Below are positions 2,810 to 61,919 of a DNA stretch of 64,000 bases, piece after piece. The stretch is taken from the NCBI GenBank assembly GCA_963727145.1, contig CAVSFA010000015.1, forward strand, positions 82,731 through 146,730, read 5' to 3'. The notes below the pieces were generated by a model. That model did no database searches. It worked only from the letters and a program-made list of their open reading frames with translations, and had not been told where the DNA came from. The DNA is from an uncultured beta proteobacterium. GTDB lineage: Bacteria; Pseudomonadota; Gammaproteobacteria; Burkholderiales; Casimicrobiaceae. Each line of letters starts with the position of its first letter. Within the stretch, counting starts at the first letter, position 1. Both the position numbers and the translations under genes were made by a program.

Positions 2810-4219
2810 CTACGAAATCCGACGCACATCGACGAAATGCCCGGCGACCGCCGCGGCCGCAGCCATCGCGGGACTCACGAGGTGCGTGCGGCCGCCCGCG
2901 CCTTGCCGGCCCTCGAAATTGCGGTTGGACGTCGACGCGCAGCGCTCGCCCGGCGAAAGGCGGTCGTCATTCATCCCGAGGCACATCGAGCAGCCCGGCT
3001 CGCGCCACTCGAACCCGGCGTCGCGGAACACGCGATCGAGACCTTCGCGTTCCGCCTGCGCCTTGACGAGGCCGGATCCCGGAACGACCAGCGCGAGCTT
3101 GACGTTGGCCGCGACACGGCGCCCGCGCGCGACCACCGCCGCTGCGCGCAGGTCCTCGATCCGCGAGTTCGTGCACGAGCCGATGAACACCTTGTCGATC
3201 GCGATGTCGGCGATCGGCGTATTGGGCGCGAGACCCATGTACGCAAGCGCGCGCTCCATGCCTTCGCGGCGTGCCGCGTCCTTTTCCCTGTCCGGGTCCG
3301 GCACGCGATCCTCGATCGACACCACCATCTCGGGCGACGTACCCCAAGTGACCTGGGGCTTCAGCTGCCCCGCTTCGAGCGTCACGACGCGATCGAAAGT
3401 CGCTCCGTCGTCGCTGTGGAGCGTTCGCCAGTGCGCAACCGCACGGTCCCAAAGCTCCGCCGCCGGCGCGAACGGACGCCCGCGCAGATATTCGATCGTC
3501 ACGTCGTCGACGCCGATCATGCCGGCGCGCGCGCCGGCCTCGATCGCCATGTTGCAGATCGTCATTCGCGCTTCCATCGACAGCGCGCGGATTGCGCTGC
3601 CGCCGAATTCGATCGCGTGGCCGGTGCCACCAGCGGTGCCGATCTTCCCGATCACCGCGAGCGCCAGGTCCTTCGCCGTGACGCCTGTCGGCAGCCTGCC
3701 ATCGGCGCGCACCAGCATCGACTTCGCCTTCTTGATGAGCAGGCATTGCGTGGCGAGCACGTGCTCGACTTCGGAGGTGCCGATGCCGAATGCGAGCGCG
3801 GCGAACGCGCCGTGCGTGCTCGTGTGCGAGTCGCCGCAGACGACGGTCATCCCAGGAAGCGTCGCCCCGTGCTCGGGGCCGATCACGTGGACGATTCCCT
3901 GTCGCTTGTCGCGAAACGGGAAGTACGCCTTGGCGCCGTGCGCGCGGATGTTGGCGTCGAGGGTCTCAACCTGCAGGCGCGATATCGGGTCGTCGATGCC
4001 GCGATCCCAGTGCTGCGTCGGAGTGTTGTGGTCGGCGGTCGCGACGATCGAGCTCGGCCGCCACGGCTTGCGGCCGGCGAGCTTCAGGCCTTCGAACGCC
4101 TGCGGACTCGTCACTTCGTGGACGAGATGGCGGTCGACGTAGAGGAGCGCCGTGCCGTCCGCCTCGGTGCGGACGACGTGGCTGTCCCATAGCTTGTCGT
4201 AGAGGGTGCGCGCGAGCAT
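2810..4219 (-). CDS. leuC: 3-isopropylmalate dehydratase large subunit
   Basis: 469-aa intact ORF with aconitase-family motifs ([24 protein letters not shown]). Confidence 0.95.
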
Positions 4220-4270
4220 GGTCGCTGATATGACCCGACCGGAGCCGACCGGTTCGCGTCCAGCTGCAAA

Positions 4271-5248
4271 TTATAGCGCCGTCGTACGCCCTCCCGCGGG
4301 GGACGCTTCCGGCGCGAGCGGGGCGGGCAAGCCGCGCGTCGCGAGGAACTCGCCGACGGCTTCGGCGAGCCCCGGGGCGTCCGGATCGAACGGCGTCGCG
4401 AGCGTCGCCCGCAGCCAGGTGACCTGGCGCTTCGCGAGCTGGCGGGTTGCGGCAATGCCTTTGGCGCGCAGGGTCGGGGTGTCGATCCGGCCCTCGAGAA
4501 ATTCCCACGCCTGTCGATATCCGACGCAGCGCATCGATGGCAGGCCGGGCGAGAGCGGGTGCTGCGCGCGCAGGCGCCGCAATTCGTCGACGAGGCCGGC
4601 TTCGAGCATCGCGTCGAAACGTTCGGCGATCGCCGCGTGCAGGCGCGCACGGTCCGCGGGAACGAGCGCGACCGCGATCGTTGGGCCGAGTCCATCGCCG
4701 GCCGCGCGCGTACCCTGGAGACGCGAGAGCGGAATGCCGGTGAGCGCGTGCACTTCGAGCGCACGCTGGATGCGCTGCGCGTCCATCGGCTCGAGCCGCG
4801 ATGCGGTCGCGGCGTCGACCTTCGCAAGCTCTGCATGCAGCGCGGGCCAACCTTCGAGGGCGGCGCGCGCATCGATCGCAGCTCGCGTCGCCGGATCAGC
4901 CGCGGGAAGTGCGCTCAAGCCCTCGACCAGTGCCTTGAAATACAGCATCGTCCCGCCGGTGACGAGCGGCACGCGCCCGCGTGCGCGGATGGCCGCGATC
5001 GCAGCGAGCGCGTCGGAGCGGAAACGCGCGGCCGAATACGCGTCGGTTGGCTCGAGGCTGTCGATCAAGTGGTGGGGAATGCGCGCACGCGTCGCCCGAT
5101 CGGGCTTCGCCGTGCCGATGTCCATGCCGCGATAGATCTGCGCCGAGTCGACGCTCACGATCTCGACGCGAAAGCGCTCGGCCAGGGCGAGCGCGAGCGC
5201 GCTCTTGCCCGATGCCGTCGGGCCCATCAGCAGCACCGCGGGAATCAT
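4271..5248 (-). CDS. miaA: tRNA dimethylallyltransferase
   Basis: 325-aa intact ORF with P-loop GPTASGKS and [16 protein letters not shown], typical of MiaA. Adjacent to mutL. Confidence 0.93.
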
Positions 5249-49702: not shown

Positions 49703-51659
49703 ATGAAACAGGCGATTCCGAGCGGACTGCTGGTGAATAACAATGCGTTCGATTCGCTCATGGCGCGCCACCTCGACTGCTGGCCGAGCCAGCCCGGTGA
49801 ACCTGATGCCGAGCGGACTGCACGTCAGCACCTACGCGTTCAACCCGGGGATCGGTCAGTACCTGTACTTCTTCACCAACGCCGCGAACAACGGCGCAAC
49901 GAGCAACAGCTGGTCTGCAGCGAGCGGCTCGGGAGGGGGGTTGCTGGGCGCCAGCGGTGCCGCGGGTTTCCTGCCCCTCTGGACCGGTGCGACGACGCTG
50001 GGGAACTCCGCTGTGTCTCAAAACAGCGGCAATGTGGGCATCGGCGTGGCGGGCGCACGTTCAACCAGCTGCAGGTCGGGGATACGCCCGGCTTCTCCGC
50101 CAATCAACTGGCGCTGGGCAACGGTGTCCAGGCCATGTCGTTCGCACTCACGCCCGCCGCATCGATCTGGTATGGCAATACCGCCTTCTCGCTGCAATAG
50201 ACCGTCGGTGACTCGTTCGTGGGCATCGGCGGCAACCCGACGCACAACCTCGATGTGTTGGGCGGCAACGCGCAGATCGGCCTCGTCGATACTGTCAACT
50301 GGGGCTTCAGCGACGATCTCGAAATACACCAACCGCTTGGAGATAAGTCCAGTAGATGCGTTCCAGATATCGGTCGGCGGACTCGCACACCCGCACTTCT
50401 GGATCGGTAGCAACGGCAACGTGGCGTGGGCACGACGTCGCCGGCCAGCAAACTGCAGATCGGTTCCGTCGGCGCGTCGGGCTACGGCGGCGACGACATC
50501 GCGTTCGGGAACGGCACGCAGGCGTCGGGGATCGCGCAGACGGCGAGCGTCGCGCAATGGTATTCGACGACCAATATCGCGCTGATGCCATGCGGCAATG
50601 GCCACGGGCGGGTAGGGATCAACACAACGACGCCCAGGCGCTGTCCACTTGGAGGTTCTGGACTATCGTCACCGGCAACATGCTATTGAGGCTATAACGG
50701 GTTCAACGACCTTGATGGAGTCCAACCTCGACGTCTGCACGATTTGCATCCAGCGCAAGTCTCGATCTGAGCGAGTCGGCAACGTCATGGCGCTCGAATT
50801 TGATGCCCATTCGGACGCCCGCATCAAGGATATCACCGGCATCAGCGACTCGGCCCGCGACCTCGAAACGATCAATGCACTTGAAGTCACCGACTACACG
50901 CTGAAGGACAAGGTCAAGTACGGCAACAAGCCGTTCAAGAAGGTGATCGCGCAGCAGGTCGAGAAGGTCTATCCCCAGGTCGTCTCGCAGCACGTCGACT
51001 TCATCCCCAACGTCTATCGAGCCGCCAGCACGGTCACGAAGACCGCGGCCGGCACGCTGCTGCACTTCGACAATGCACACGGACTGAGCCCCGGTGCCAA
51101 GCGCCTCAAGCTGCTGACGTCCGGCGACCATACGATGCAGCAGGTCGGCATCGTGTCCATTCCATCCGTCCGCGACGTGCTGATCGACGCGCCGCAGCTG
51201 AACGGCGAAAAGGTGTTCGTCTATGGCGAGGAGGTCGACGATTTCCGCACTGTCGACTACGAAGGCCTGACCACGCTCAACATCTCCGCGACACAGGAAA
51301 TCGCGAAGCGGCTTGCAAAGCAGCAGGCGGACCTCGCCGCGCTCGTCTGCGCCAAGGATGCCGAGGTCGCCGAACTGCGTGAACAACTGGCGAAGCAGCA
51401 GGCGCGCGTCGCCGAGCTCGAAAGCCTGGCCGCCGACATGCGCGAGATCCGCGCGCAGGTCGCGGCATTGAAGCGCAATGCCGCGGCCGTCCCAATGGCA
51501 CGACGCTGCACTGCGCCCCTGATGACGTCAAACCGCGCCCCATCGGCGTGGCTGTTGCTGGCGCTCGTCGCTGTGCCGTCCGCCGCGCAGGTGACGGGCG
51601 CGCCCCCGGGCGTGGCTCCCGTGAGCCGCCGATTGCTGATGGTTACTTCGATGGGTTGA
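49703..51659 (+). pseudogene. tail-fibre-like protein with C-terminal peptidase-S74 intramolecular chaperone domain (several frame breaks in the 5' half)
   Basis: Repeated G-N-V-G-I-G type motifs (GNVGIGVAG, FVGIGGNPTHNLDV, GRVGINTTTP). The intact ORF 50649..51659 carries HSDARIKDITGISDSARDLETINALEVTDYTLKD...KKVIAQQVEKVYPQVV (S74 signature) and a coiled coil (AELREQLAKQQARVAELESL). The 5' start is uncertain. Confidence 0.65.
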
Positions 51660-52607: not shown

Positions 52608-52949
52608 TCAGGTGAAAACGATCGACAGGCGGCCGTCCTTCCGGGAACGGGGTGTCGCCTTCACGACGATCTGTACGTCGCGTCCGAGCTTCGTGAGACA
52701 GTCCATCAAGCGGCGCTCGGAAAAACCACGGAACTGCCCGCGCAGCAGGTTGGAAAGCTTAGGCTGCGGCATCCCCAGCAATTCCGCGGCTTGGGTCTGG
52801 GTGAGGCCCTTCCGTTTGATGATCTCCGCAATCTTGGCCACGAGTTGGGCTTTGATCAGCATCTCGTCGGCATCGGCGTAACCGAGATCGGCGTAGACGT
52901 TGCTGGTCCCAATCTCTACGTCAATACCTTGCACCTTACGCTTGCTCAT
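52608..52949 (-). CDS. XRE-family HTH antitoxin (HigA-like)
   Basis: MSKRKVQGIDVEIGTSNVYADLGYADADEMLIKAQLVAKIAEIIKRKGLTQTQAAELLGMPQPKLSNLLRG. The ATG at 52949 overlaps the toxin stop (ATGA). Confidence 0.8.
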   Translation of the reverse strand: MSKRKVQGIDVEIGTSNVYADLGYADADEMLIKAQLVAKIAEIIKRKGLTQTQAAELLGMPQPKLSNLLRGQFRGFSERRLMDCLTKLGRDVQIVVKATPRSRKDGRLSIVFT

Positions 52950-53321
52950 CTTGATAACTCCTTCACGACCTGCTCGGCCGTCTTCAGTCGCTCTCTGATC
53001 AATTCCATATCCTGTTTGGGTATGGCGATTCCACTCTTCGCCTTCTTCTGAAACACGTGCAGCACGTACACCGCAGCAACGAAAGCGCACGGTACAAACA
53101 GCGCGGTACGCGTTTCCACGCCAGTCTTCGACGATCTCCAGGACGCCTGCTGACCCAAAGCCGTGGAGTGGCTTGGCCTGTTCGTGCTTCTTACCGGTCT
53201 GGGCGAGGTGCAGGGCATACCCGAACGTATCGATCACTTCCTCCGGCAACGCCATCAAATCCTTCTTTGTGCTGGCAAGCCATACCAGCGGCTTGGGCTC
53301 AGGAGGGGATTCCTTCGGCAT
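52946..53321 (-). pseudogene. RelE/HigB-type toxin of the phage Gp49-like (DUF891) family, one frame break at about 53082-53084
   Basis: LVWLASTKKDLMALPEEVIDTFGYALHLAQTGKKHEQAKPLHGFGSAGVLEIVEDWRGNAYRAV.TVRF, then AVYVLHVFQKKAKSGIAIPKQDMELIRERLKTAEQ in ORF 52946..53218. Removing one T from a TTT run restores VRFVAAVYVLH. Confidence 0.75.
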
Positions 53322-53973: not shown

Positions 53974-55137
53974 CTACCGCCCAGCGAGTGACCCCTTCCA
54001 GTCGCGGAACACGTCGATGTCCATTCCGTCCGGGAAAAATAGATACCCGGGTGCGTGCCCCGGCGTGTCGGTCACGCCGTATTGCCAGACGATTTCCTTC
54101 GTGGCGCGGTCGATGACTAGCACGCGATGTCGCTGATCGTCGTTCAGGACGACGTTCCCGTTCGGAAGTTCCAGCGCGAGGGAGGGATGGTCAAGCATCT
54201 TCTCGCCGCTCTTCTCAAAGTATTCCCATGAAATCTTGCCGGACATCGGATCGAAGATGACAACCCGCCCAGGTTTCGAGAAATCGGCCACGATCACCTG
54301 ACCATCGCGAGTCGGAAACGCATCGGACGGATAGCGGACGTGCGGCGCTCGGATGCTCCAAATCAACTTGCCATCCCGGGCGATGCGTGAAATCCACGCA
54401 TTCGAGATCTCCGTCACAAGAATATCGCCGTTGTCGAGTGGCGTCGTGCCATTGGGGTAAGCGAGATAACGCGGCGGATCGTGCTTGCACGTGCCTTCCT
54501 TGCCCCATTGCCCGATAACGGAGGAGGTTGTGGGATCAATGAACTGGACCCGGCAGTTGCGGATGTCGGCGACGACCACTTTGCCGTCAGCCATCAAGTG
54601 CGCGTCATCGGGGTAGTTGAAGTAGCCGGGCTTGCTGCCCTTCGTGTCGGAGGCCCCGACCGTCCAAGTGAGCTGGCGCGTGTTGTAGTCAATGATGTGA
54701 ATGTCGTAGTTGTCTTCTTCATTGACGACGAGCTGCGTGCCGTCCCGCGAAAAGAACACATCATCGTTGCCGCGATAGATCTTGAGATTCGGCGACGGAA
54801 ATTCCCAGACGATGCGCTTGTCCGGCGCGACTTCGATGAGGCGGTTGTTGCGCCGGTCGGCGATGACGATTGGGTACGGCAACGGCGTCCCCCACGATGG
54901 TGCCGGCTTCTCGCGCGTACCGGTGACCGGCGGGATCGGCGGAAGCGTGACGCCGCTGGAAACCGCGCCCGCGCCGATCATTTCCGGGGTTACCTTGACC
55001 GCCTGGACGTCGCTCTTCTCTTTCTTCGGCCCGGCCGGCTGCGCCGATCCTGCGAGCCCAAGTCCGACCAGCCCTGCGGCCGCGAGCACCAAGGTCCACA
55101 GCGCCGCGGCATGCCTTGCGCAATTCCGAATAGCCAT
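53974..55137 (-). CDS. secreted beta-propeller repeat protein (unknown function)
   Basis: GAGGAG RBS before the ATG at 55137. Signal/TM AALWTLVLAAAGLVGLGLAGS. Six to seven ~50-aa repeats of the type N.R(V/L)..(I/V)D....(I/V)W.(Y/F). GC is clearly lower than in the core genome. Confidence 0.7.
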   Translation of the reverse strand: MAIRNCARHAAALWTLVLAAAGLVGLGLAGSAQPAGPKKEKSDVQAVKVTPEMIGAGAVSSGVTLPPIPPVTGTREKPAPSWGTPLPYPIVIADRRNNRLIEVAPDKRIVWEFPSPNLKIYRGNDDVFFSRDGTQLVVNEEDNYDIHIIDYNTRQLTWTVGASDTKGSKPGYFNYPDDAHLMADGKVVVADIRNCRVQFIDPTTSSVIGQWGKEGTCKHDPPRYLAYPNGTTPLDNGDILVTEISNAWISRIARDGKLIWSIRAPHVRYPSDAFPTRDGQVIVADFSKPGRVVIFDPMSGKISWEYFEKSGEKMLDHPSLALELPNGNVVLNDDQRHRVLVIDRATKEIVWQYGVTDTPGHAPGYLFFPDGMDIDVFRDWKGSLAGR

Positions 55138-55702
55138 CAGTTCTCCTCGCGCCACGAAACGGCCCAACATATCCGACGCAAGCGGAGGCTGATTCGATTC
55201 AGGTCAAGGTCGAGCGGAAATATCGACTCAACTGCGGCCAGGTCAACGTCGGCCGCGTTGACCAATCGCCTGCTCCGTCTGTCGCTAACATCCATGCGGC
55301 TGGCTCGTCCGAAGGGACCGCTTACGGGCAAAAGCCCTTTGACTGTTTCTGGCCGCACTCGGCCGGTCGAGCCGGAGCGCCGGACGGTGGGTTCCCTTCG
55401 CGCGGCTCGCGGGCTCACAAGCACGCGGAAGCGTAGAGGTACTCCGGCAGAGCGTGCGACGAGCCTGAGCCGGGCGCTGGCGAAAGGCAGAAGACCCCCT
55501 GCTGAAAGGGCCGGGCGTCGTACTTTGTACGGCGACCGAATTCTTCGACCCCGTCCAAGGTCTCCGTACTTCGCACGACGAACGACGACGGAAAGGGCTG
55601 CGCGCCGTCATATCGACCGGCCGAAACGGGGCCAGGAGCGGCCGCGCAACGGGCACGGGCCGACCTTTCCCCAGCATCGTGGCCCAACGCGCGGCGCGCC
55701 GC

Positions 55703-56497
55703 CTACTTCGTTGCGCCCCAGCCTTTGCGCAGCTGCTTGCCGATCGCGAGCATGAACCGAAGCGTGTCCTGAGTCTCGGGATCGCGCATCAGATGCCAGA
55801 GCCCACCGATTCCGCCAGCCGACGGGGGGGCCGCGCGGCTCGCGGTCGCTGCGGAGTCGATCGACTGCAGGACCTCCTGCACGGTCGCGAGCCGGTCGGC
55901 AAGTTGCGGCAGCATCGTCGCCAGCCGCTCGAGTGCCCCGCTTTCCTGCAACCCTTCGAGCATCTTGACGACGTGTTCGGCGCCGCCGCGGCTGAAACGG
56001 TCGAGCAGCGATAGCCCGTTGCCGACCGTGTCGACGAGGCGGCTCACCATCTCGTCAGTCAGCGCGTCCTCGGCTGAGCCGTAGACGCGCACCAGCTTGA
56101 CCAGCCGGTTGAGGTCGCCATTGTTGACCATCTCCGCCAGGGCGGGGATCGCGCGATCGAGCCCGGCGCGATTCACCTGGTCGAGCAGGGCGAGGCCTTC
56201 GCCGATCGCCTGGCTCAACCGCGTGACCATCTCGTCGGTCAGCGCATCCTGGGCGGAACTGTACAGCCTGGCGATCTGCGAAAGCCGCTCGATGTCTCCG
56301 TTGTTGACCATCTGGGCCACTGCCGGAATAGCCCGTGCGAGCCCGGCACGATTCACCTGGTCCATCAACTCGACGGCGTCGCCCGCGGTCGTCGCGAGGC
56401 GCGTCACCATCTCGTCGGTGAGCGCATCGCGCGCCGCCGAGATCACCCGTTCGACCTCGACGTTTACGGCCCCGGCTTCCTCCGACTGTCCGTTCAT
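55703..56497 (-). CDS. DUF1641-type protein with a three-fold internal repeat
   Basis: AGGAG RBS before the ATG at 56497. Three ~60-aa repeats A.DALTDEMV(T/S)RL....G....L(M/L)D...R(A/G)G.... C-terminal GGLWHLMRDPETQDTLRFMLAIGKQL is typical of DUF1641 proteins found next to NADH-dehydrogenase/SQR-like flavoproteins. Confidence 0.7.
   Translation of the reverse strand: MNGQSEEAGAVNVEVERVISAARDALTDEMVTRLATTAGDAVELMDQVNRAGLARAIPAVAQMVNNGDIERLSQIARLYSSAQDALTDEMVTRLSQAIGEGLALLDQVNRAGLDRAIPALAEMVNNGDLNRLVKLVRVYGSAEDALTDEMVSRLVDTVGNGLSLLDRFSRGGAEHVVKMLEGLQESGALERLATMLPQLADRLATVQEVLQSIDSAATASRAAPPSAGGIGGLWHLMRDPETQDTLRFMLAIGKQLRKGWGATK
56046..56470. repeat. tandem 180-bp repeat (about 2.4-3 copies) inside the DUF1641 gene
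   Basis: The string ACCATCTCGTC recurs at 56046, 56226 and 56406 (period exactly 180 nt) with extended similarity around each copy. Confidence 0.8.
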
Positions 56498-56508
56498 GTT
56501 CGGCTCCT

Positions 56509-57643
56509 TCAGAGCAGCCCGCGTGCCGACACCCAGTAAAGCTTGTTGTATGCCATCTTGAACCAATGCACGGCCTTGGTTGGCGGCTTCGGATCAGGCG
56601 GATTGAGATAATCGAACATCGCGTAGGTCGCGCGGTCTTTGCCGGCTTCGATGAAGCAGAAGACCTTGCCGTCGTAATCGCGAACCGGTGCGCCCAGCTT
56701 GACCATTGCCGCGATGTTCTCGCCCGAGCGCCTCGGCCTCGAAGTGGGCAGTCGAGCCGGCCTTGCTGATCGGGAGGTTGGTCGTGTCGCCGAGCGCAAA
56801 GACGTTCTTGCGGCCTTCCATGTTGAGCTGGTGCCGGTGCGTGGGGATCCAGCCGCCCGCGCCTAGCTTGTTCTTCTCGATCACCTCCATGCCCCGGTGG
56901 GTCGGGATCGAGATCAGCAGGTCGTAGGGCGTCTCGCCGCCCTCTTCGCTCTTCACCACCTTCGCCTTGCCATCGACCTCCTTCAGGTTGAACAGCGTTT
57001 CGTAGCTAATGCCGAGGCGATCGAACTCGGGCGCCGCCCACTTGGCAACGTTTTCCAGCGTGTGGACGCGCCCGATGGGATAGGTGTAGTGCAGTTGAAC
57101 CTTGTCGCGGATGCCGCGATCCTTGAAGTAGTCATGCAGCATGAACGTGATCTCCAGCGGCGCCATCGGGCACTTGTGCGGGACGCCCATGGCGATCACG
57201 ACGCGCCCGCCCTGGAACGCCTGCAGCCGCCGGAACATCTTGACCGCCGTCTCCTCGGTGTAGAACGTCTCCGAGTTCTCGGCGAGGCCCGGAATGAGTT
57301 CCGGCACCGGCCGCGACCCGGTCGCGATCGCGAGAATGTCGTAGTCGAAGGTCTTCCCGCTCTTTGTCTTGACGCGATTCTGGTCGAGCAGAAACTCCTC
57401 GACCGGATCAACGACGAGCGTGATGCCCGGTTCGAGCAACGTCGCCTGGTCCTTGTACAGCTCGTCGGGCGTCATGCGACCGAACGCGAGATACAGGAGC
57501 CCGGGCTGGTACATGTGCTTCTCGGAGGCGGTCACCATCGTGAGCTTGGCCTTGCCGGACTTGAGCTCGGGCTGGAGCCTGCGAGCGAGGTTGTTGGCGA
57601 GAATCGTTCCACCCATTCCACCGCCGATGATCAGGATCTTCAT
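56509..57643 (-). pseudogene. sulfide:quinone oxidoreductase-like FAD-dependent oxidoreductase, one frame break at about 56723-56725
   Basis: GAGGAG RBS. MKILIIGGGMGGTILANNLA (FAD fold), PHKCPMAPLEITFML and ALGDTTNLPISKAGSTAHFEAE. The C-terminus ENIAAMVKLGAPVRDYDGKVFCFIEAGKDRATYAMFDY is in ORF 56509..56799. An extra base in a CCC/GGG run explains the break. Confidence 0.75.
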
Positions 57644-57680
57644 TGCGTCTCCTCTCGTCAACCCATTCGAATGAACGTCG

Positions 57681-57911
57681 TCACTTCGTCTTCTTGACCG
57701 TGATGTGCCAGACGCCGGCTTCCTCGCGCGTGCCGAGGAATTCGTGGCCGACCTTCTTGATCCATTCCGGAATATCGTTGGCCGAACCTTTGTCGGTCGA
57801 CAACACTTCGAGCTCGTCGCCGACCTGCGCCATCTTCATCCAGCCGATCAATTCCATCAGCGGACCGGGACAGAAGCTATCCCGGGCGTCAATCAGTTTT
57901 CTCTCGGACAT
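57681..57911 (-). CDS. tusA: TusA/SirA-family sulfur carrier protein
   Basis: 76 aa, MSERKLIDARDSFCPGPLMEL, with the conserved C-P-x-P active-site motif. The ATG at 57911 was verified. Confidence 0.85.
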   Translation of the reverse strand: MSERKLIDARDSFCPGPLMELIGWMKMAQVGDELEVLSTDKGSANDIPEWIKKVGHEFLGTREEAGVWHITVKKTK

Positions 57912-57937
57912 TGCCAATCCCGCCTTTCCCGCCAGCG

Positions 57938-58333
57938 TTAGAACGACCAGACCTGCGCGTCCCGCGCATCGTCCAGGAACTTCGTCAGACCGAGCGGTTC
58001 GCTGAGGTAGGGTTCCAACCCCTCGCGCTCGACACCCATGACGTCCATCGCCATCGAACACGGGAAGACTCTTGCGCCTCCCAGGTCCACCGCCTGCTGG
58101 AACAGCGTACGGAATGCCGGAACCTTCTTGTCCGCCATCTGAGCGCCAAACGAGCCTTCCGGCGGTGCGTTCACCGTGCTCCCCTTCACAAAGTACGCCA
58201 GCGCGTTCATCGACAGGAACACGCTCACCTCGTTGCCGCTCACCGCCCCTACCGACGCCAGCATCGCAGCCATCTGCAGGCGCTCGTGCGCCCCCGATAC
58301 GACGATGATGCTGATCTTGTTGGAGCCCATCAC
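57938..58333 (-). CDS. DsrE/DsrF/DrsH-like (DsrE3-type) sulfur-relay protein
   Basis: 131 aa, KISIIVVSGAHERLQMAAMLAS...VFPCSMAMDVMG. This is the DsrE3-like Cys motif and fold pattern. Confidence 0.75.
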   Translation of the reverse strand: MMGSNKISIIVVSGAHERLQMAAMLASVGAVSGNEVSVFLSMNALAYFVKGSTVNAPPEGSFGAQMADKKVPAFRTLFQQAVDLGGARVFPCSMAMDVMGVEREGLEPYLSEPLGLTKFLDDARDAQVWSF

Positions 58334-58469
58334 GACCTCTTCATGATCTAGATCGAAACCTGACCAAATTTGCCGCCCGAATCGCGTGGACCTGACCGCG
58401 GCCGGGAGGGGTCGTCGTTGTACGCCCGGATTCGTGCGCTGCCGAAAGACACCACGGCGACAGCAGAAA

Positions 58470-59648
58470 TCATGCAGCCTTCGTCGCTTGCGACCAAGGT
58501 GGAAACAGCCGCACCATGACCGAGAGCAGCACGAACGGCGCAGCGATCACGCCAGCCGCCGCAAGTAATCCCTCACGACCCAGGAAGGTCGGCGTATACG
58601 TTAGTAGCCCCTTGCCGGTCTTGGAAATCTCCTGACCGCCGATGACGACGTTCCAGCGCATCATCAGCACCGCGAGCAGCACGAGACATGCGCTGACGAA
58701 CACACCCGCTGTCAACGTCTTGCCGCCGATGCCGCGCCAGATCATCAACGTTAGGATCACGAGCGGCAAGGCAGAGCCGATACCGAACTGAAGGATCACG
58801 AATGGCACGATGAGCTGGCCATTGACGAACTCCAGGATCATCTCAGTGCCCTCGCGGCCCCGGTAGACGAGGCTTGCGAACTCCACGCCCTCGAGCAGCA
58901 GCGTGAACATCATGAATCCCCACAGCGTATATGCCATGCCCTTGAGGCAAGGCAGGTCAACCGCCACTTTGCGCAACCGGCACGAGAACACGTAAATGAC
59001 GATCACGAGCGCAGTACCGGAGATGATCGCCGAGAAAAGGAATATCGCGGGCATCAGGTCGGACGACCACCACTCGCGCGACTTGAGCGAGCCGAACACG
59101 AAGCCGACATAACCGTGCAGGCCGTGCGCCGCCGGTATGCCGATGACGGCCAGCGCAAAGATCCATTTGCGATCGTAACTCATCGCCTTTTCCGACAGGT
59201 CGTCGGACCCGAGCGAGAGCACGCGGTAGAACAGACGCAGCATACCCTTGGACCGTTGCGCCTCGCGCACGATGTGCGGCCGGAACACGAACCAGTTCTC
59301 GAGCAGCAATAGCAGCACGTAGAAGCTCGCCGCGTAGCCGAAGATCGCGAACGCAGACGTCGTGTGCGGTGTGATCATCGCATTGAGCGCACGCTCGGGA
59401 TGGCCGAGATGTAGCAGCAACGGCGTAGGCACGACGAGCATGCAGCACAGCGACGTCAGCAGCGCGAGATGCGCGACCGGTCTGAACCGCTGCATGCCGA
59501 ACACCTGATACAGGCTCGAAACCGTAAACGCACCGGCGACGAGTCCGGTGAGGTAAGGATAGACGACGACGAGTACCGTCCAGGGGATGACGGTCTCGTT
59601 GGGGTATACGTAGCCGATGAACGGCGCGATGTTGGGGACGGGTTCCAT
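58470..59648 (-). CDS. NrfD/PsrC-family integral membrane quinone-interacting subunit
   Basis: 392-aa intact, about 10 TM segments. The N-terminal WTVLVVVYPYLTGLVAGAF is typical of the NrfD/PsrC/DsrP family. Its start overlaps the stop of the FeS gene (TGATG). Confidence 0.8.
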   Translation of the reverse strand: MEPVPNIAPFIGYVYPNETVIPWTVLVVVYPYLTGLVAGAFTVSSLYQVFGMQRFRPVAHLALLTSLCCMLVVPTPLLLHLGHPERALNAMITPHTTSAFAIFGYAASFYVLLLLLENWFVFRPHIVREAQRSKGMLRLFYRVLSLGSDDLSEKAMSYDRKWIFALAVIGIPAAHGLHGYVGFVFGSLKSREWWSSDLMPAIFLFSAIISGTALVIVIYVFSCRLRKVAVDLPCLKGMAYTLWGFMMFTLLLEGVEFASLVYRGREGTEMILEFVNGQLIVPFVILQFGIGSALPLVILTLMIWRGIGGKTLTAGVFVSACLVLLAVLMMRWNVVIGGQEISKTGKGLLTYTPTFLGREGLLAAAGVIAAPFVLLSVMVRLFPPWSQATKAA

Positions 59649-60487
59649 CAGACAACGTCCTTGTCGAGGCCGACGTAATAGACGTTCGGGGCATTGCCAG
59701 ATTCCGGCTTGAGCACGCGGGTCCGATTGTTGCGGATAAACTGGCTTACCGAGCTTTGCTTATCGCGCAGATCGCCGAAGATGCGCGCGCCGACCGGGCA
59801 CACGGCAACGCACGCGGGCTGCAGCCCCTTGGTGATGCGGTGATAGCACCACGTGCACTTGTCCGTCACCTGCTTCTCCTCGTTGAAGAAGCGCGCGCCG
59901 TAGGGGCAGGCTTGCACGCAATACTGGCATCCGATGCAGTACTTGTGATCGATGACGACCACGCCATCGTCGGTACGGTAAGTCGCACCGGTGGGGCATA
60001 CCTGCACGCAGGCCGGGTGCGTGCAGTGATTGCAGAGTTTCGGCACGAAAAACGCCTTTTCGACCTTTGCGTCCTTGTAGCGATTGGCGAACCGGTATTC
60101 ATGTTCGGAGCCCGAGGCCTCGATGTTTACCAGGTCGCTGTGGCTGTCGATGCGCGGTCCCTCCTCCCCTTCGAGATAGACGTAACGCTCGACCCAAGTG
60201 CGAAAATGGTGTGCGTCGCCGATGACGTCGTTTTCACGCTTGCAGGCCTCAACGCAGCGCAGACAACCGATGCACTTGGTCGCATCGACGCCGAACGCCC
60301 AGCGGTGTTTGGTCCAGTCGTATCCTGGTATTGGAGGAGGTGAAACCACGGACGGCTCGGCTGCTGACTCGGCTTGCGTGACCGCGACCTTGCCGGCTGC
60401 GGCCACGCCGACACAGGCGGCCACGCCCCCGAGAAGGCGAAGGAATCCGCGCCGCGCATCAGCACTCTTGTCTCTGGGCTCGGTCAT
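59648..60487 (-). CDS. Tat-exported 4x[4Fe-4S] ferredoxin-type subunit (NrfC/PsrB/DsrO-like)
   Basis: Tat motif ARRGFLRLLGG. Four Cys clusters: CIGCLRCVEAC, CNHCTHPACVQVCP, CIGCQYCVQACP, CTWC...CVAVCP. Confidence 0.85.
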   Translation of the reverse strand: MTEPRDKSADARRGFLRLLGGVAACVGVAAAGKVAVTQAESAAEPSVVSPPPIPGYDWTKHRWAFGVDATKCIGCLRCVEACKRENDVIGDAHHFRTWVERYVYLEGEEGPRIDSHSDLVNIEASGSEHEYRFANRYKDAKVEKAFFVPKLCNHCTHPACVQVCPTGATYRTDDGVVVIDHKYCIGCQYCVQACPYGARFFNEEKQVTDKCTWCYHRITKGLQPACVAVCPVGARIFGDLRDKQSSVSQFIRNNRTRVLKPESGNAPNVYYVGLDKDVV

Positions 60488-60530
60488 AGCAAAGCGCTCC
60501 TCAGCGGAATGGTGGCGGTCCGTCTGATGT

Positions 60531-61565
60531 TCACTCGGAACCCGCACTCGAGAAGTAGGTCGCGAGCGCGTCCACATCGCCGTCGCTCAGGCTCTTCGCC
60601 ATCCCGCCCATCACGTCGTTCTTCCGGGCACCGTCGCGATAAGCCTTGAGCGCCGCGACGAGGTAATCCTTCTGCTGTCCGGCAAGGCTCGGCCACACCG
60701 GGTTGCTGCTGATGCCGTTCGCGCCGTGGCAGCCAACGCAGGCTGCAGCCTTCGCCTTGCCGGCGGCGGCGCTAGAACCAATAACAGCCACCCCTGCCGT
60801 CTTCAACTTCAATGCTGCGAAATGCGTGGCGACCTCGCGCATGTCCGCTTCGCTCAGTACCTTCGCAATTGCCGCCATCGTTGCGTTTTCCCTTGCACCT
60901 GACTTGTACGCCTTCAGCGCCTCAACGAGATACGCGTCGTGCTGTCCGGCGAGGTTCGGCCACATCGGATTCGCACTCACGCCGTTACCGCCATGACACC
61001 CGGCGCAAACGCTCGCCTTGCCTGCTGTGCCGGCGCCGTTAGATGCAGCCGGCGCCGCGGGACCGCGAAGGGTCCTTGGCGAGTGCGGGTTGTGGCACAC
61101 CGTGCACTGCTGCGTGCCCGCATGGGTTGCCAGCACGATCTGCTTCTGCTCAGCGGGCCTGCCGGGCATCTTTTCATGGCAGAGCGGGCACAACCTCAGC
61201 GTGTCAGTCGGTACGGCGAGTTTGCCGCCTGCCGGATGATCCACGCCGGTGGACACGTGCTCGAATTTGCCCTTGATGTCGCGTTCGCCGGCCGCTCCGT
61301 GGCAGACCTCGCATTGGACGGCCTTGCCTAGATCGACGCGGTGGTGGACGCCCTCGGACCATTCGGCGTAGCGCTCAGCATGGCAGGTGCGGCAATAGTC
61401 GGAGCCTTTGAACTTCGGCTTGTCCGACGCGATCTCAGCGACCGAATCGCCGCGATAGTGGCCGTAACGGTAAAACGAGTCCGCAGTAAAGAAGAGCTTC
61501 GCCGCGTAGGCCGCTCCACCGAATGCGACCAACAGAACGATGAGTCGAGCGACGTGCTTGGGCAT
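60531..61565 (-). CDS. membrane-anchored hexahaem c-type cytochrome (tetrahaem module plus two c4-like monohaem domains)
   Basis: N-terminal [24 protein letters not shown]. Six CxxCH sites: CRTCH, CEVCH, CPLCH, CTVCH, CAGCH, CVGCH. The last two lie in a duplicated ~95-aa domain ([29 protein letters not shown] / [29 protein letters not shown]). An alternative start is at 61634. Confidence 0.85.
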
Positions 61566-61919
61566 GTCGTTGTGGCCCCTGCTTCCAGTCTCGGGACGAG
61601 GGTGTTTAGTGCAGGAGATCGCCTTGCCTGGCAAGTCGGTTCACGCCCTGCAAGTTCCCCAATGCACCAGGTGCGACTATTTGCCGCACTCGCTGCGGGG
61701 CTATTGATGTATGTCAAGAATTGTCGACGACACGCCCGCGAACGCATCGCCCGTTGGCAAGAACGCATCTGCCGTGAGAAGTTGTAACAGCTTGGATTTC
61801 TAGGCGCTCGAATTGCCTGACGAATACCTGACAAACAAGCGCATCTCGCACCTATGCGAGCGCGCGACTCGTTTGCTGTGACCGTAGAACAGCATTGTCG
61901 GGGGCCCAACCACAACTCT

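Follow-up and report, generated by a model that had tools for sequence, protein, structure and literature searches.

The stretch of DNA analysed here (the window), 64,000 nucleotides from an uncultured beta proteobacterium (GenBank assembly GCA_963727145.1, contig CAVSFA010000015.1, positions 82,731 to 146,730 of the forward strand), carries seven co-directional open reading frames (ORFs) on its minus strand, which extend over 55703-61634 as mechanical ORFs and over 55703-61565 by gene models set from homologue lengths and ribosome-binding context. The first three genes, hereafter block A or the triad (58470-61565), encode a membrane-anchored hexahaem cytochrome c (60531..61565; 344 aa from ATG 61565, the mechanical ORF beginning at TTG 61634), an iron-sulfur (FeS) protein of the NrfC/PsrB type with four [4Fe-4S] clusters and an export signal of the twin-arginine translocation (Tat) kind (59648..60487; 279 aa from ATG 60487), and an NrfD-family integral membrane subunit that interacts with quinone or quinol (58470..59648; 392 aa). 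The other four, hereafter block B or the cassette (55703-58333), encode a DsrE-family sulfur carrier (57938..58333; 130-131 aa), a TusA sulfur carrier (57681..57911; 76 aa), a flavoprotein resembling sulfide:quinone oxidoreductase (SQR), in particular its type III (56509..57643; 377 aa once frame-corrected), and a DUF1641 protein (55703..56497; 264 aa from ATG 56497, the mechanical ORF beginning at TTG 56566). A junction spacer of 136 nt (58334..58469) lies between the blocks. An initial annotation of this region had described seven co-directional, closely spaced genes with one overlapping stop/start, and all seven are present on the minus strand; base 59648 is common to the stop codon of the FeS gene and the start codon of the NrfD gene (1-base overlap). 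Close spacing was confirmed inside each block and does not hold across the 136-nt gap between NrfD and dsrE, which comparative data identify as the junction of two blocks. Its gene identifications were essentially right, the families being supported by Pfam and NCBIfam profile searches, with the exception of the DsrE3 subtype.

We read the region as two respiratory modules, each functionally complete in itself and connected only by the quinone pool, block A acting as a quinol:cytochrome c module and block B carrying out cytoplasmic sulfide oxidation with the help of a DUF1641 tube, and we give this reading a probability of roughly two in three (0.68).

Conservation and limits of the two blocks

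Relatives were surveyed starting from either block. The triad survey comprised the best 80 NrfD loci (63-94% identity), one genome per species, from at least 559 confirmed matches, and the cassette survey comprised 80 metagenome loci found from the flavoprotein, which is 79-94% identical across them; L- and P-numbers denote the relative loci and the homologous proteins, respectively. Loci were counted as having room when there was enough contig to show the neighbour, which on the triad side meant more than 3 kb downstream (n = 59); four contigs of the triad survey end just upstream of NrfD. The FeS and NrfD genes were adjacent in 80/80 species-level genomes, with a cytochrome match immediately upstream in most of these loci and a partial match in a few, and cassette genes (DsrE, TusA, flavoprotein, DUF1641) occurred in none of the 59 triad loci with room. 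Among the cassette loci with room, DsrE preceded the flavoprotein in 68/68, TusA preceded it in 68/68 and DUF1641 followed it directly in 66/66, so that the reported link between a sulfur-carrier pair, an SQR-like enzyme and a DUF1641 protein proved real and conserved. NrfD was found in 0 of the 80 cassette loci, and the five FeS matches in this survey were ferredoxin-type proteins, 33-38% identical and kilobases away.

The closest relatives gave the same picture. The nearest triads, L001 and L010 (NrfD 94% identical), come without the cassette, and the nearest cassettes, L170 (cassette DNA 88% identical), L090 and L092, come without the triad; in the neighbourhoods inspected individually, the flanks were unrelated each time and the other block was missing. 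Both blocks occur on one 1.1-Mb relative contig, with no triad gene within 10 kb of the cassette. At the DNA level, blastn homology to the triad of L010 spans 58467-61729 and homology to the cassettes of L170, L090 and L092 spans 55703-58333/58350, leaving about 116 nt of the spacer (58351-58466) without homology to any relative of either block. Taken together, the surveys in both directions, the neighbourhoods and the limits of DNA homology indicate that the seven-gene arrangement is a local, lineage-specific juxtaposition of two independently inherited blocks. At the evolutionary level the two gene sets are thus independent units, and the proposal of one seven-gene system was not borne out.

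A scan of 58334-58469 found no terminator or promoter consensus, the RNA fold of the spacer was no better than that of shuffled sequences (z = +0.89), and the fold of the 3' end likewise gave nothing beyond shuffles. Alignment of the 200 nt upstream of dsrE from 15 loci yielded no shared promoter and a motif in one subgroup only: in L096, L097, L099 and L100, a conserved stretch of about 45 nt (ctacgggtaaacaccgaatgaca...ggtcatactt) lies about 60-110 nt upstream of dsrE and could be an operator or leader element; it is present neither in the window nor in other cassette loci.

The arrangement in the window nevertheless invites a reading of all seven genes as one operon and one system, in which sulfur carried by DsrE and TusA would be oxidised by the flavoprotein and the electrons would pass via quinone to the adjacent NrfD, FeS protein and cytochrome and on to periplasmic acceptors. 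The two blocks share a strand, the 136 nt that separate them contain no terminator-like site, and a single transcript could still cover both; both act on quinone and are hence metabolically compatible; and a gene for a periplasmic (secreted) double-rhodanese stands directly upstream of the cytochrome gene, on the same strand, in 11/80 triad loci, which suggests that some triads serve periplasmic sulfur chemistry. These points count against a strict separation. They are opposed by the complete lack of co-occurrence in the two surveys (0/59 and 0/80), by the closest relatives of either block, which lack the other, and by homology that stops at the block boundaries. Furthermore, the flavoprotein and its carriers are assigned to the cytoplasm and the FeS protein and cytochrome to the periplasm, so the general quinone pool would be the sole possible link between them. 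We therefore regard a single seven-gene system as very unlikely; two separate modules could work together by way of the quinone pool, in the manner of any quinone reductase with any quinol oxidase.

The sulfide:quinone oxidoreductase-like cassette

The initial annotation had found no recognisable catalytic subunit in the cluster; for the cassette, this subunit is the SQR-like flavoprotein. It matched Pfam Pyr_redox_2 (E 3.6e-16), and its N-terminus reads MKILIIGGGMGG, as in an FAD-binding Rossmann fold. Its best solved relatives were human SQOR (E 1.7e-32), Acidianus SQR and Aquifex SQR, whereas matches to structures of type II NADH dehydrogenase (NDH-2) reached E about 1e-5 to 1e-6 and covered the N-terminus only. 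A Foldseek search with the flavoprotein model (pLDDT 63, moderate) placed SQR or flavocytochrome c sulfide dehydrogenase (FCSD) at all of ranks 1-19. The protein has only two cysteines, C158 (KCPMAP) and C329 (VFCFIEAG), which are invariant in 23 homologues and align with the KCAGAP and TSCPLV cysteines of human SQOR, a pair that we take to be the catalytic Cys201/Cys379. For comparison, the cysteine pair of type III SQR is Cys159/Cys339 (PMC13047784). These matches uphold the earlier description of an SQR-like flavoprotein; a grouping with ordinary type II NADH dehydrogenases was not seen, the SQR matches being far stronger, and an NDH-2 identity was rejected on that ground. The flavoprotein measures 377 aa, compared with 409-437 aa in solved SQRs, and is 30-60 residues shorter at its C-terminus, the alignments ending at residue 390 of 430 in Aquifex SQR and at position 352 of 406 in the type III model. 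In genome records, the block B proteins are named only generically (FAD/NAD(P)-binding oxidoreductase, DUF1641 domain-containing protein).

The DsrE-family protein matched Pfam DrsE_2 (PF13686; E 3.9e-12) and has a single conserved cysteine (VFPCSMAMD) with glycine at residue +8. Its best solved relative, with the cysteine aligned, was 2QS7 (E 6.5e-15), which is DsrE2B (Liu et al. 2014, PMC4175335); 3MC3 (DsrE3A) was not among its structure matches, and no sHdr or lipoate genes were present in the inspected cassette neighbourhoods. The family named in the initial annotation was therefore correct and its DsrE3 subtype was not supported, since the protein lacks a C-X7-C motif, lies closest to DsrE2B and shows no sHdr/lipoate linkage. 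With DsrE4, the SQR-linked DsrE group (Liu et al. 2014, PMC4175335), it shares an adjoining flavoprotein gene in 68/68 loci and a conserved active-site cysteine, a likeness of linkage and cysteine only. TusA was recognised as such from its match to PF01206 (E 6.3e-20; 71.2 bits against a cut-off of 28.6) and the CPGP (CPxP) cysteine of its DSFCPGP motif. Linkage of SQR, TusA and DsrE is already in the literature. In Methylacidiphilum fumariolicum, H2S induces the type III sqr-tusA-dsrE2 operon MFUM_v2_0219-0221 about 1.7-fold, and a role in sulfide oxidation has been proposed for it (Schmitz et al. 2023); in Metallosphaera cuprina, Mcup_1722-1724 is tusA-sqr-dsrE4. None of the flavoprotein, DsrE, TusA and the DUF1641 protein has a transmembrane segment, and all four are therefore taken to be cytoplasmic; an N-terminal signal is not evident in any of them (no formal signal prediction was made).

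The DUF1641 protein matched the Pfam family (PF07849) at its C-terminus with 24.7 bits, against a cut-off of 21, over a head that reads GGIGGLWHLMRDPETQ..., and it contains three amphipathic helical repeats of 60 residues starting at residues 24, 84 and 144 (39/60 identical between repeats 1 and 2), in agreement with the triplicated repeat noted earlier. It is predicted to be all-helical, and its mean hydrophobic moment of 0.329 exceeds that of shuffled sequences (0.222 +/- 0.024), being reached by 0/500 of them. In a search of 177,635 PDB sequences, the family profile placed two YjlC/Ncp entries (9SNK_B, E 0.0015; 9PXK_E, E 0.0032) and HucM (7UUS_Q, E 0.053) in the top three; the match is located in the head motif GGxGGLW..RDPxxQ, and the stretch GGLW234HLMR...KQLRK in this head lines up with GLFGLLRMLKDP of Ncp and with the HucM region around its Trp. 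Each of these relatives has a known role with quinone. HucM forms a tetrameric amphipathic coiled-coil tube that scaffolds the Huc hydrogenase and through which menaquinone travels 94 Å from the membrane; Ncp (YjlC) likewise forms a tube, providing membrane attachment and quinone carriage for an NDH-2 without membrane-binding residues; and a further member, ForE, is needed for menaquinone binding and for the formate:menadione activity of ForC. Among homologues of the cassette protein (L090-L169, P0241-P0360), one of which (P0242) is 100% identical to it, the 60-residue repeat (DALTDEMV...NNGDL.RL) occurs in 2, 3 or 4 copies, and the proteins fall into size groups of about 170-210, 257-276 and 311-325 aa, a single one reaching 385 aa. 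Clustering of the partner family at 50% leaves 218 representatives; in plasmids, tblastn found no match to the DUF1641 protein. The SQR-like enzyme of the cassette is probably a new client of the quinone-conducting scaffold; a DUF1641 partner of an SQR was not described in the literature searched, whose coverage is incomplete.

From these features, a working scheme can be drawn. The flavoprotein would oxidise sulfide to enzyme-bound sulfane sulfur using FAD and Cys158/Cys329, as the conservation of both SQR catalytic cysteines suggests. It would then hand the sulfane sulfur to the TusA/DsrE pair instead of releasing free polysulfide, a step for which the strict gene linkage and published DsrE-to-TusA sulfur transfer, biochemically established for other members of these families, provide the analogy. 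The DUF1641 protein, by homology to HucM, ForE and Ncp, may assemble as an oligomeric tube of amphipathic helices, which would contact the membrane by way of its Trp/Arg/Lys-bearing head and lead quinone to the flavin site, and the flavoprotein would pass its electrons to the quinone thus supplied. Tube length would depend on how many 60-aa repeats are present, homologues having 2 to 4 of them. In its full form, with a soluble or peripheral sulfide:quinone complex in which a repeat-length-set DUF1641 tube extracts membrane quinone for the flavoprotein and TusA/DsrE capture the sulfane sulfur directly, the scheme is a tentative proposal to which we give somewhat less than even odds.

Several observations tell against this account of the cassette. 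The flavoprotein scored below the cut-off of its closest NCBIfam model, that for the selenoprotein subtype of type III SQR (NF049943; E 8.5e-94, 314.7 bits against 525), as is expected given that the model describes the selenoprotein subtype and the window enzyme is a Cys enzyme. The flavoprotein also keeps a short predicted C-terminal helix (residues 356-374, low confidence), which might suffice for membrane binding. The match to DUF1641 covers a short stretch (24.7 bits with Pfam, E about 1e-3 with solved structures), and the AlphaFold2 monomer model of this protein is poor (pLDDT 49.6), the tube being a hypothesis. Finally, the flavoprotein gene is frameshifted in the window, and block B may be inactive in this organism.

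The frameshift was overlooked in the initial annotation. One extra base at about 56726 (GCGCT[C]GGGCGAG, minus strand) splits the flavoprotein into ORFs 56594-57661 and 56509-56799. The best 120 flavoprotein homologues are all exactly 377 aa, and the frame-corrected protein aligns gap-free to P0121 with 93% identity through ...EAEALGENIAAMV... A second frameshift, which splits a higB-like toxin gene at 52946-53321, lies about 3.5 kb away, where a HigB/Gp49-like toxin and an HTH_37 antitoxin are read as one 237-aa ORF (52608-53321, minus strand), accompanied by ORF 52946-53218, and the proper C-terminus of the toxin (AAVYVLHVFQKKAKSGIAIPKQDMELIRERLK) is in another frame; this hints at indel errors in the assembly. 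Block B could alternatively be a decaying pseudogene cassette that encodes nothing functional, the insertion truncating the flavoprotein before Cys329 and the C-terminal helix, and 6/6 relatives indeed lack the extra C, which is not part of a long homopolymer. Set against this are the rest of the gene, which is 93% identical to intact homologues and shows no other defect, the second frameshift in the higB-like gene, and the nearest relatives, which are metagenome-assembled genomes. The 'MFD' series was presumably assembled from long reads, making indel errors likely. Because of the second frameshift and the metagenome-assembled origin of the closest relatives, an assembly indel seems more likely than a true pseudogene, and we consider a decayed cassette unlikely, if still deserving of weight.

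Two more distant loci bear on the function of the DUF1641 pair. L172, on pHH400 of Haloarcula hispanica (72300-81391), contains TusA, a 41%-identical flavoprotein and a DUF1641 protein, together with DsrE and a second TusA in divergent orientation, a rhodanese-metallo-beta-lactamase (persulfide-dioxygenase-like) fusion, two YeeE/YedE genes and a thioredoxin; its DUF1641 orthologue scored 55.9 bits and aligned to the cassette family by hhalign with 94.7% probability. This island looks like a complete set for handling sulfide and sulfane sulfur in a cultured, genetically tractable organism. L174, on the Ralstonia solanacearum megaplasmid (3450-5113), encodes a 35%-identical flavoprotein whose second catalytic cysteine is replaced by alanine (GRVVAIAQMG). 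The next ORF, of 195 aa, resembles DUF1641 at its C-terminus (GLIGLLRMTREPEIRRGMAF), and the locus has neither TusA nor DsrE. Because L174 keeps the pair without the second cysteine and without either carrier, the DUF1641 pairing appears to outlive the sulfur chemistry.

The Ralstonia pair also lends itself to a different interpretation of block B, as an NDH-2-like NADH:quinone oxidoreductase with an Ncp-like partner or as an NAD(P)H-dependent persulfide/polysulfide reductase acting on sulfur bound to TusA/DsrE. Such an enzyme would fit the only solved complex of a flavoprotein with a DUF1641 protein, that of NDH-2 with Ncp, and the NDH-2 structures found lower down the sequence and fold match lists. 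The SQR matches exceed those to NDH-2 by many orders of magnitude in E-value, however, and both SQR catalytic cysteines are invariant; moreover, the segment at the position of the second dinucleotide-binding motif of NDH-2, read directly, is GGRVVIAMGVPHKCPMAP and contains no GxGxxG, and the homologous operon of Methylacidiphilum is induced by H2S. An NADH-dependent role is consequently improbable, and sulfide oxidation stays the preferred function of the cassette.

Immediately downstream of the cassette, after a gene-free GC-rich gap of 530 bp, the window encodes a secreted NHL/beta-propeller protein (53974-55170, minus strand); other NHL-repeat genes lie close to the L170 cassette and to the L050 triad (64% identical). 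Farther on lie ORFs 50649-51659 and 49743-50585 (both plus strand), with a Peptidase_S74 (tail-fibre/endosialidase chaperone) domain ORF. This ORF and the toxin-antitoxin pair point to a patch of mobile or phage origin some 2-5 kb downstream of the cluster. The window as a whole yielded no tRNA gene.

The cytochrome c, FeS protein and NrfD triad

Six CxxCH motifs and a single transmembrane helix near the N-terminus (residues 4-28) were found in the cytochrome, as expected from its earlier description as a membrane-anchored hexahaem cytochrome c. Four c3/c7-type haems are followed by a C-terminal dihaem domain resembling cytochrome c4 and PdsA: Pfam matches were to Cytochrom_C, Cytochrome_C7 and Paired_CXXCH, the C-terminal half matched NCBIfam PdsA with E 2.8e-20, below the cut-off, and residues 177-340 matched the cytochrome c4 structure 6Q2U (E 1.4e-22). 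Its homologues are also 344 aa long. The description of the second protein as a Tat-exported, NrfC/DsrO-like carrier of four [4Fe-4S] clusters was likewise corroborated, by a Tat motif (RRGFL), 16 cysteines in four ferredoxin-type groups and a match to Pfam Fer4_11 (E 1.7e-28). Its best NCBIfam matches, TtrB and DsrO, were both below cut-off (DsrO 196.6 against 200), and its best solved relative was PsrB (2VPW_B, E 2e-42), with a further match to the FeS domain of ActB (6BTM_B, E 3e-21) from alternative complex III (ACIII). The NrfD-type membrane subunit was confirmed by its match to PF03916 (E 1.2e-38) and about eight transmembrane (hydrophobic) segments; 7657 NrfD homologues were found, up to 95% identical, and phmmer against the PDB returned no solved structure.

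This composition makes the triad a quinol:cytochrome c module of a known kind, that of NrfBCD, NetBCD and ACIII, and as such it needs no catalytic partner, which answers for block A the earlier remark that a catalytic subunit was missing. As far as domain content and gene neighbourhood allow a path to be drawn, block A would work as an inner-membrane quinol/quinone:cytochrome c oxidoreductase in which NrfD binds quinol and electrons pass through the four periplasmic [4Fe-4S] clusters to the anchored tetrahaem domain and then to the fused high-potential dihaem c4 domain. From there they would reach periplasmic acceptors or, in relatives, might flow in the reverse direction from extracellular donors via MtoAB-type conduits.

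In the related triad loci L011-L014 and L030 (NrfD 82-90% identical), the gene just upstream of the cytochrome gene, on the same strand, encodes an MtrB/PioB-like (mtoB-like) porin, so that the genes run porin, cytochrome, FeS, NrfD, and in L011 and L012 an MtrA-like (mtoA-like) decahaem gene stands upstream of the porin gene. Across the 80 triad relatives, the MtrA-like decahaem occurred in 12 and the MtrB/PioB-like porin in 10; neither L010 nor the 2.4 kb that the window offers upstream of its triad contains genes for a porin-cytochrome conduit. Other recurrent neighbours in these genomes were further c4-type cytochromes, a two-component system (11 to 14 loci) and a CbcL-like multihaem/cytochrome b fusion (25-26 of 80 loci). 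Many loci also have a conserved membrane protein of 263 aa (one gene call labels it Aq_1264_TM), noted in connection with L011-L014, L030 and L003/L017. The loci with a double-rhodanese gene are L053, L054, L058, L064, L066, L070-L073, L075 and L079, from Ramlibacter-type Burkholderiales.

Membership of the triad in DsrMKJOP, ACIII or Qrc was considered and rejected, the extra defining subunits being absent and the NCBIfam scores falling below the cut-offs (DsrP 37.6 against 350; QrcC 92.7 against 400). None of DsrM, DsrK, ActB1, ActD, ActF and QrcB was found beside the triad in the window or in three Pfam-annotated neighbourhoods of relatives. A provisional name, "MofABC", was dropped, since MofA denotes a multicopper oxidase in He et al. 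2017. A paper that cites it presents NetBCD of Aeromonas hydrophila as a quinol:cytochrome c oxidoreductase of several subunits that serves extracellular electron transfer and uses PdsA as a dihaem shuttle; NetBCD was not found in the review by Zhong & Shi 2018.

Significance and comparison with known systems

The seven-gene cluster is not worth pursuing as a unit, and its value lies in the four-gene cassette and the SQR-DUF1641 hypothesis. The cassette is very widespread and highly conserved, occurring in Betaproteobacteria and Acidobacteria of soil, sediment and groundwater and reaching the haloarchaea. If the hypothesis is true, it would provide the first sulfur-metabolising client of the DUF1641 quinone-conduit scaffold and, for Gram-negative bacteria and for haloarchaea, the first DUF1641 conduit, one that is modular and variable in length. 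Access to quinone by a cytoplasmic SQR that lacks a full membrane anchor, with toxic sulfane sulfur being channelled to protein carriers, would be explained as well. Should the protein be a quinone conduit here too, the mechanism known from Huc, ForCE and Ndh-Ncp would extend to sulfide oxidation and beyond Bacillota and Actinobacteria. The triad, for its part, adds a well-populated family (at least 559 matches among species-level genomes) to the candidate NetBCD-like quinol:cytochrome c modules, and some members stand beside genes for Mto-type iron oxidation or extracellular electron transfer.

Compared with known complexes, the triad shares with ACIII (ActABCDEF), QrcABCD and DsrMKJOP an NrfD-like subunit, an FeS subunit and a periplasmic multihaem cytochrome, and the penta- and monohaem ActA/ActE of ACIII are functionally comparable to the 4+2 haem fusion of the window; it differs from them in having no molybdopterin-like ActB1/QrcB domain, ActD, ActF, DsrM or DsrK. 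The resemblance to NetBCD/PdsA, compared by description only, and to NrfBCD consists of a multihaem cytochrome c, an NrfC-type protein with four [4Fe-4S] clusters and NrfD, with the probable work of a quinol:cytochrome c oxidoreductase and no molybdopterin or sirohaem subunit. Relatives of the triad adjoin MtrA/MtrB-type genes as net adjoins mtr, and a likeness to PdsA, the dihaem shuttle, is seen in the window cytochrome over its C-terminal half. In contrast to NetBCD and NrfBCD, the window cytochrome is an anchored tetrahaem fused to a dihaem c4 and not an NrfB-type pentahaem, and unlike the NetBCD locus, the 2.4 kb upstream of the triad holds no mto or mtr genes.

For the cassette, the operons of Methylacidiphilum and Metallosphaera, compared by description only, likewise link an SQR-like flavoprotein with TusA and a DsrE-family protein; they differ in gene order, no DUF1641 gene is mentioned for either, and the genes flanking the Methylacidiphilum operon (0218 and 0222) are not co-regulated with it. 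The cst operon of Staphylococcus aureus (CstA, CstB, SQR) also pairs an SQR with sulfurtransferase domains, TusA-like and DsrE/TusD-like, as acceptors of sulfane sulfur, and encodes a persulfide dioxygenase-rhodanese downstream; the same set of functions recurs in the Haloarcula island. The cst operon differs from the cassette in that its carriers are fused in one multidomain protein, its SQR is of type II and it is not known to have a DUF1641 partner; the staphylococcal type II sqr is about 25% identical to the window flavoprotein. The closest parallels to the SQR-DUF1641 pair are HucM, ForE and Ncp, each of them small, amphipathic and all-helical, with DUF1641 as the C-terminal head and with a gene that directly follows that of an anchorless quinone-reducing enzyme, and in the case of Ncp, the client is also a flavoprotein with two dinucleotide-binding domains that is related to SQR. 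The cassette protein departs from these three in its 2 to 4 tandem 60-aa repeats, which have not been reported for them, in its hosts, which are Gram-negative Betaproteobacteria, Acidobacteria and haloarchaea as opposed to Bacillota or Actinobacteria, and in its probable client, which in the window is an SQR-like sulfur enzyme.

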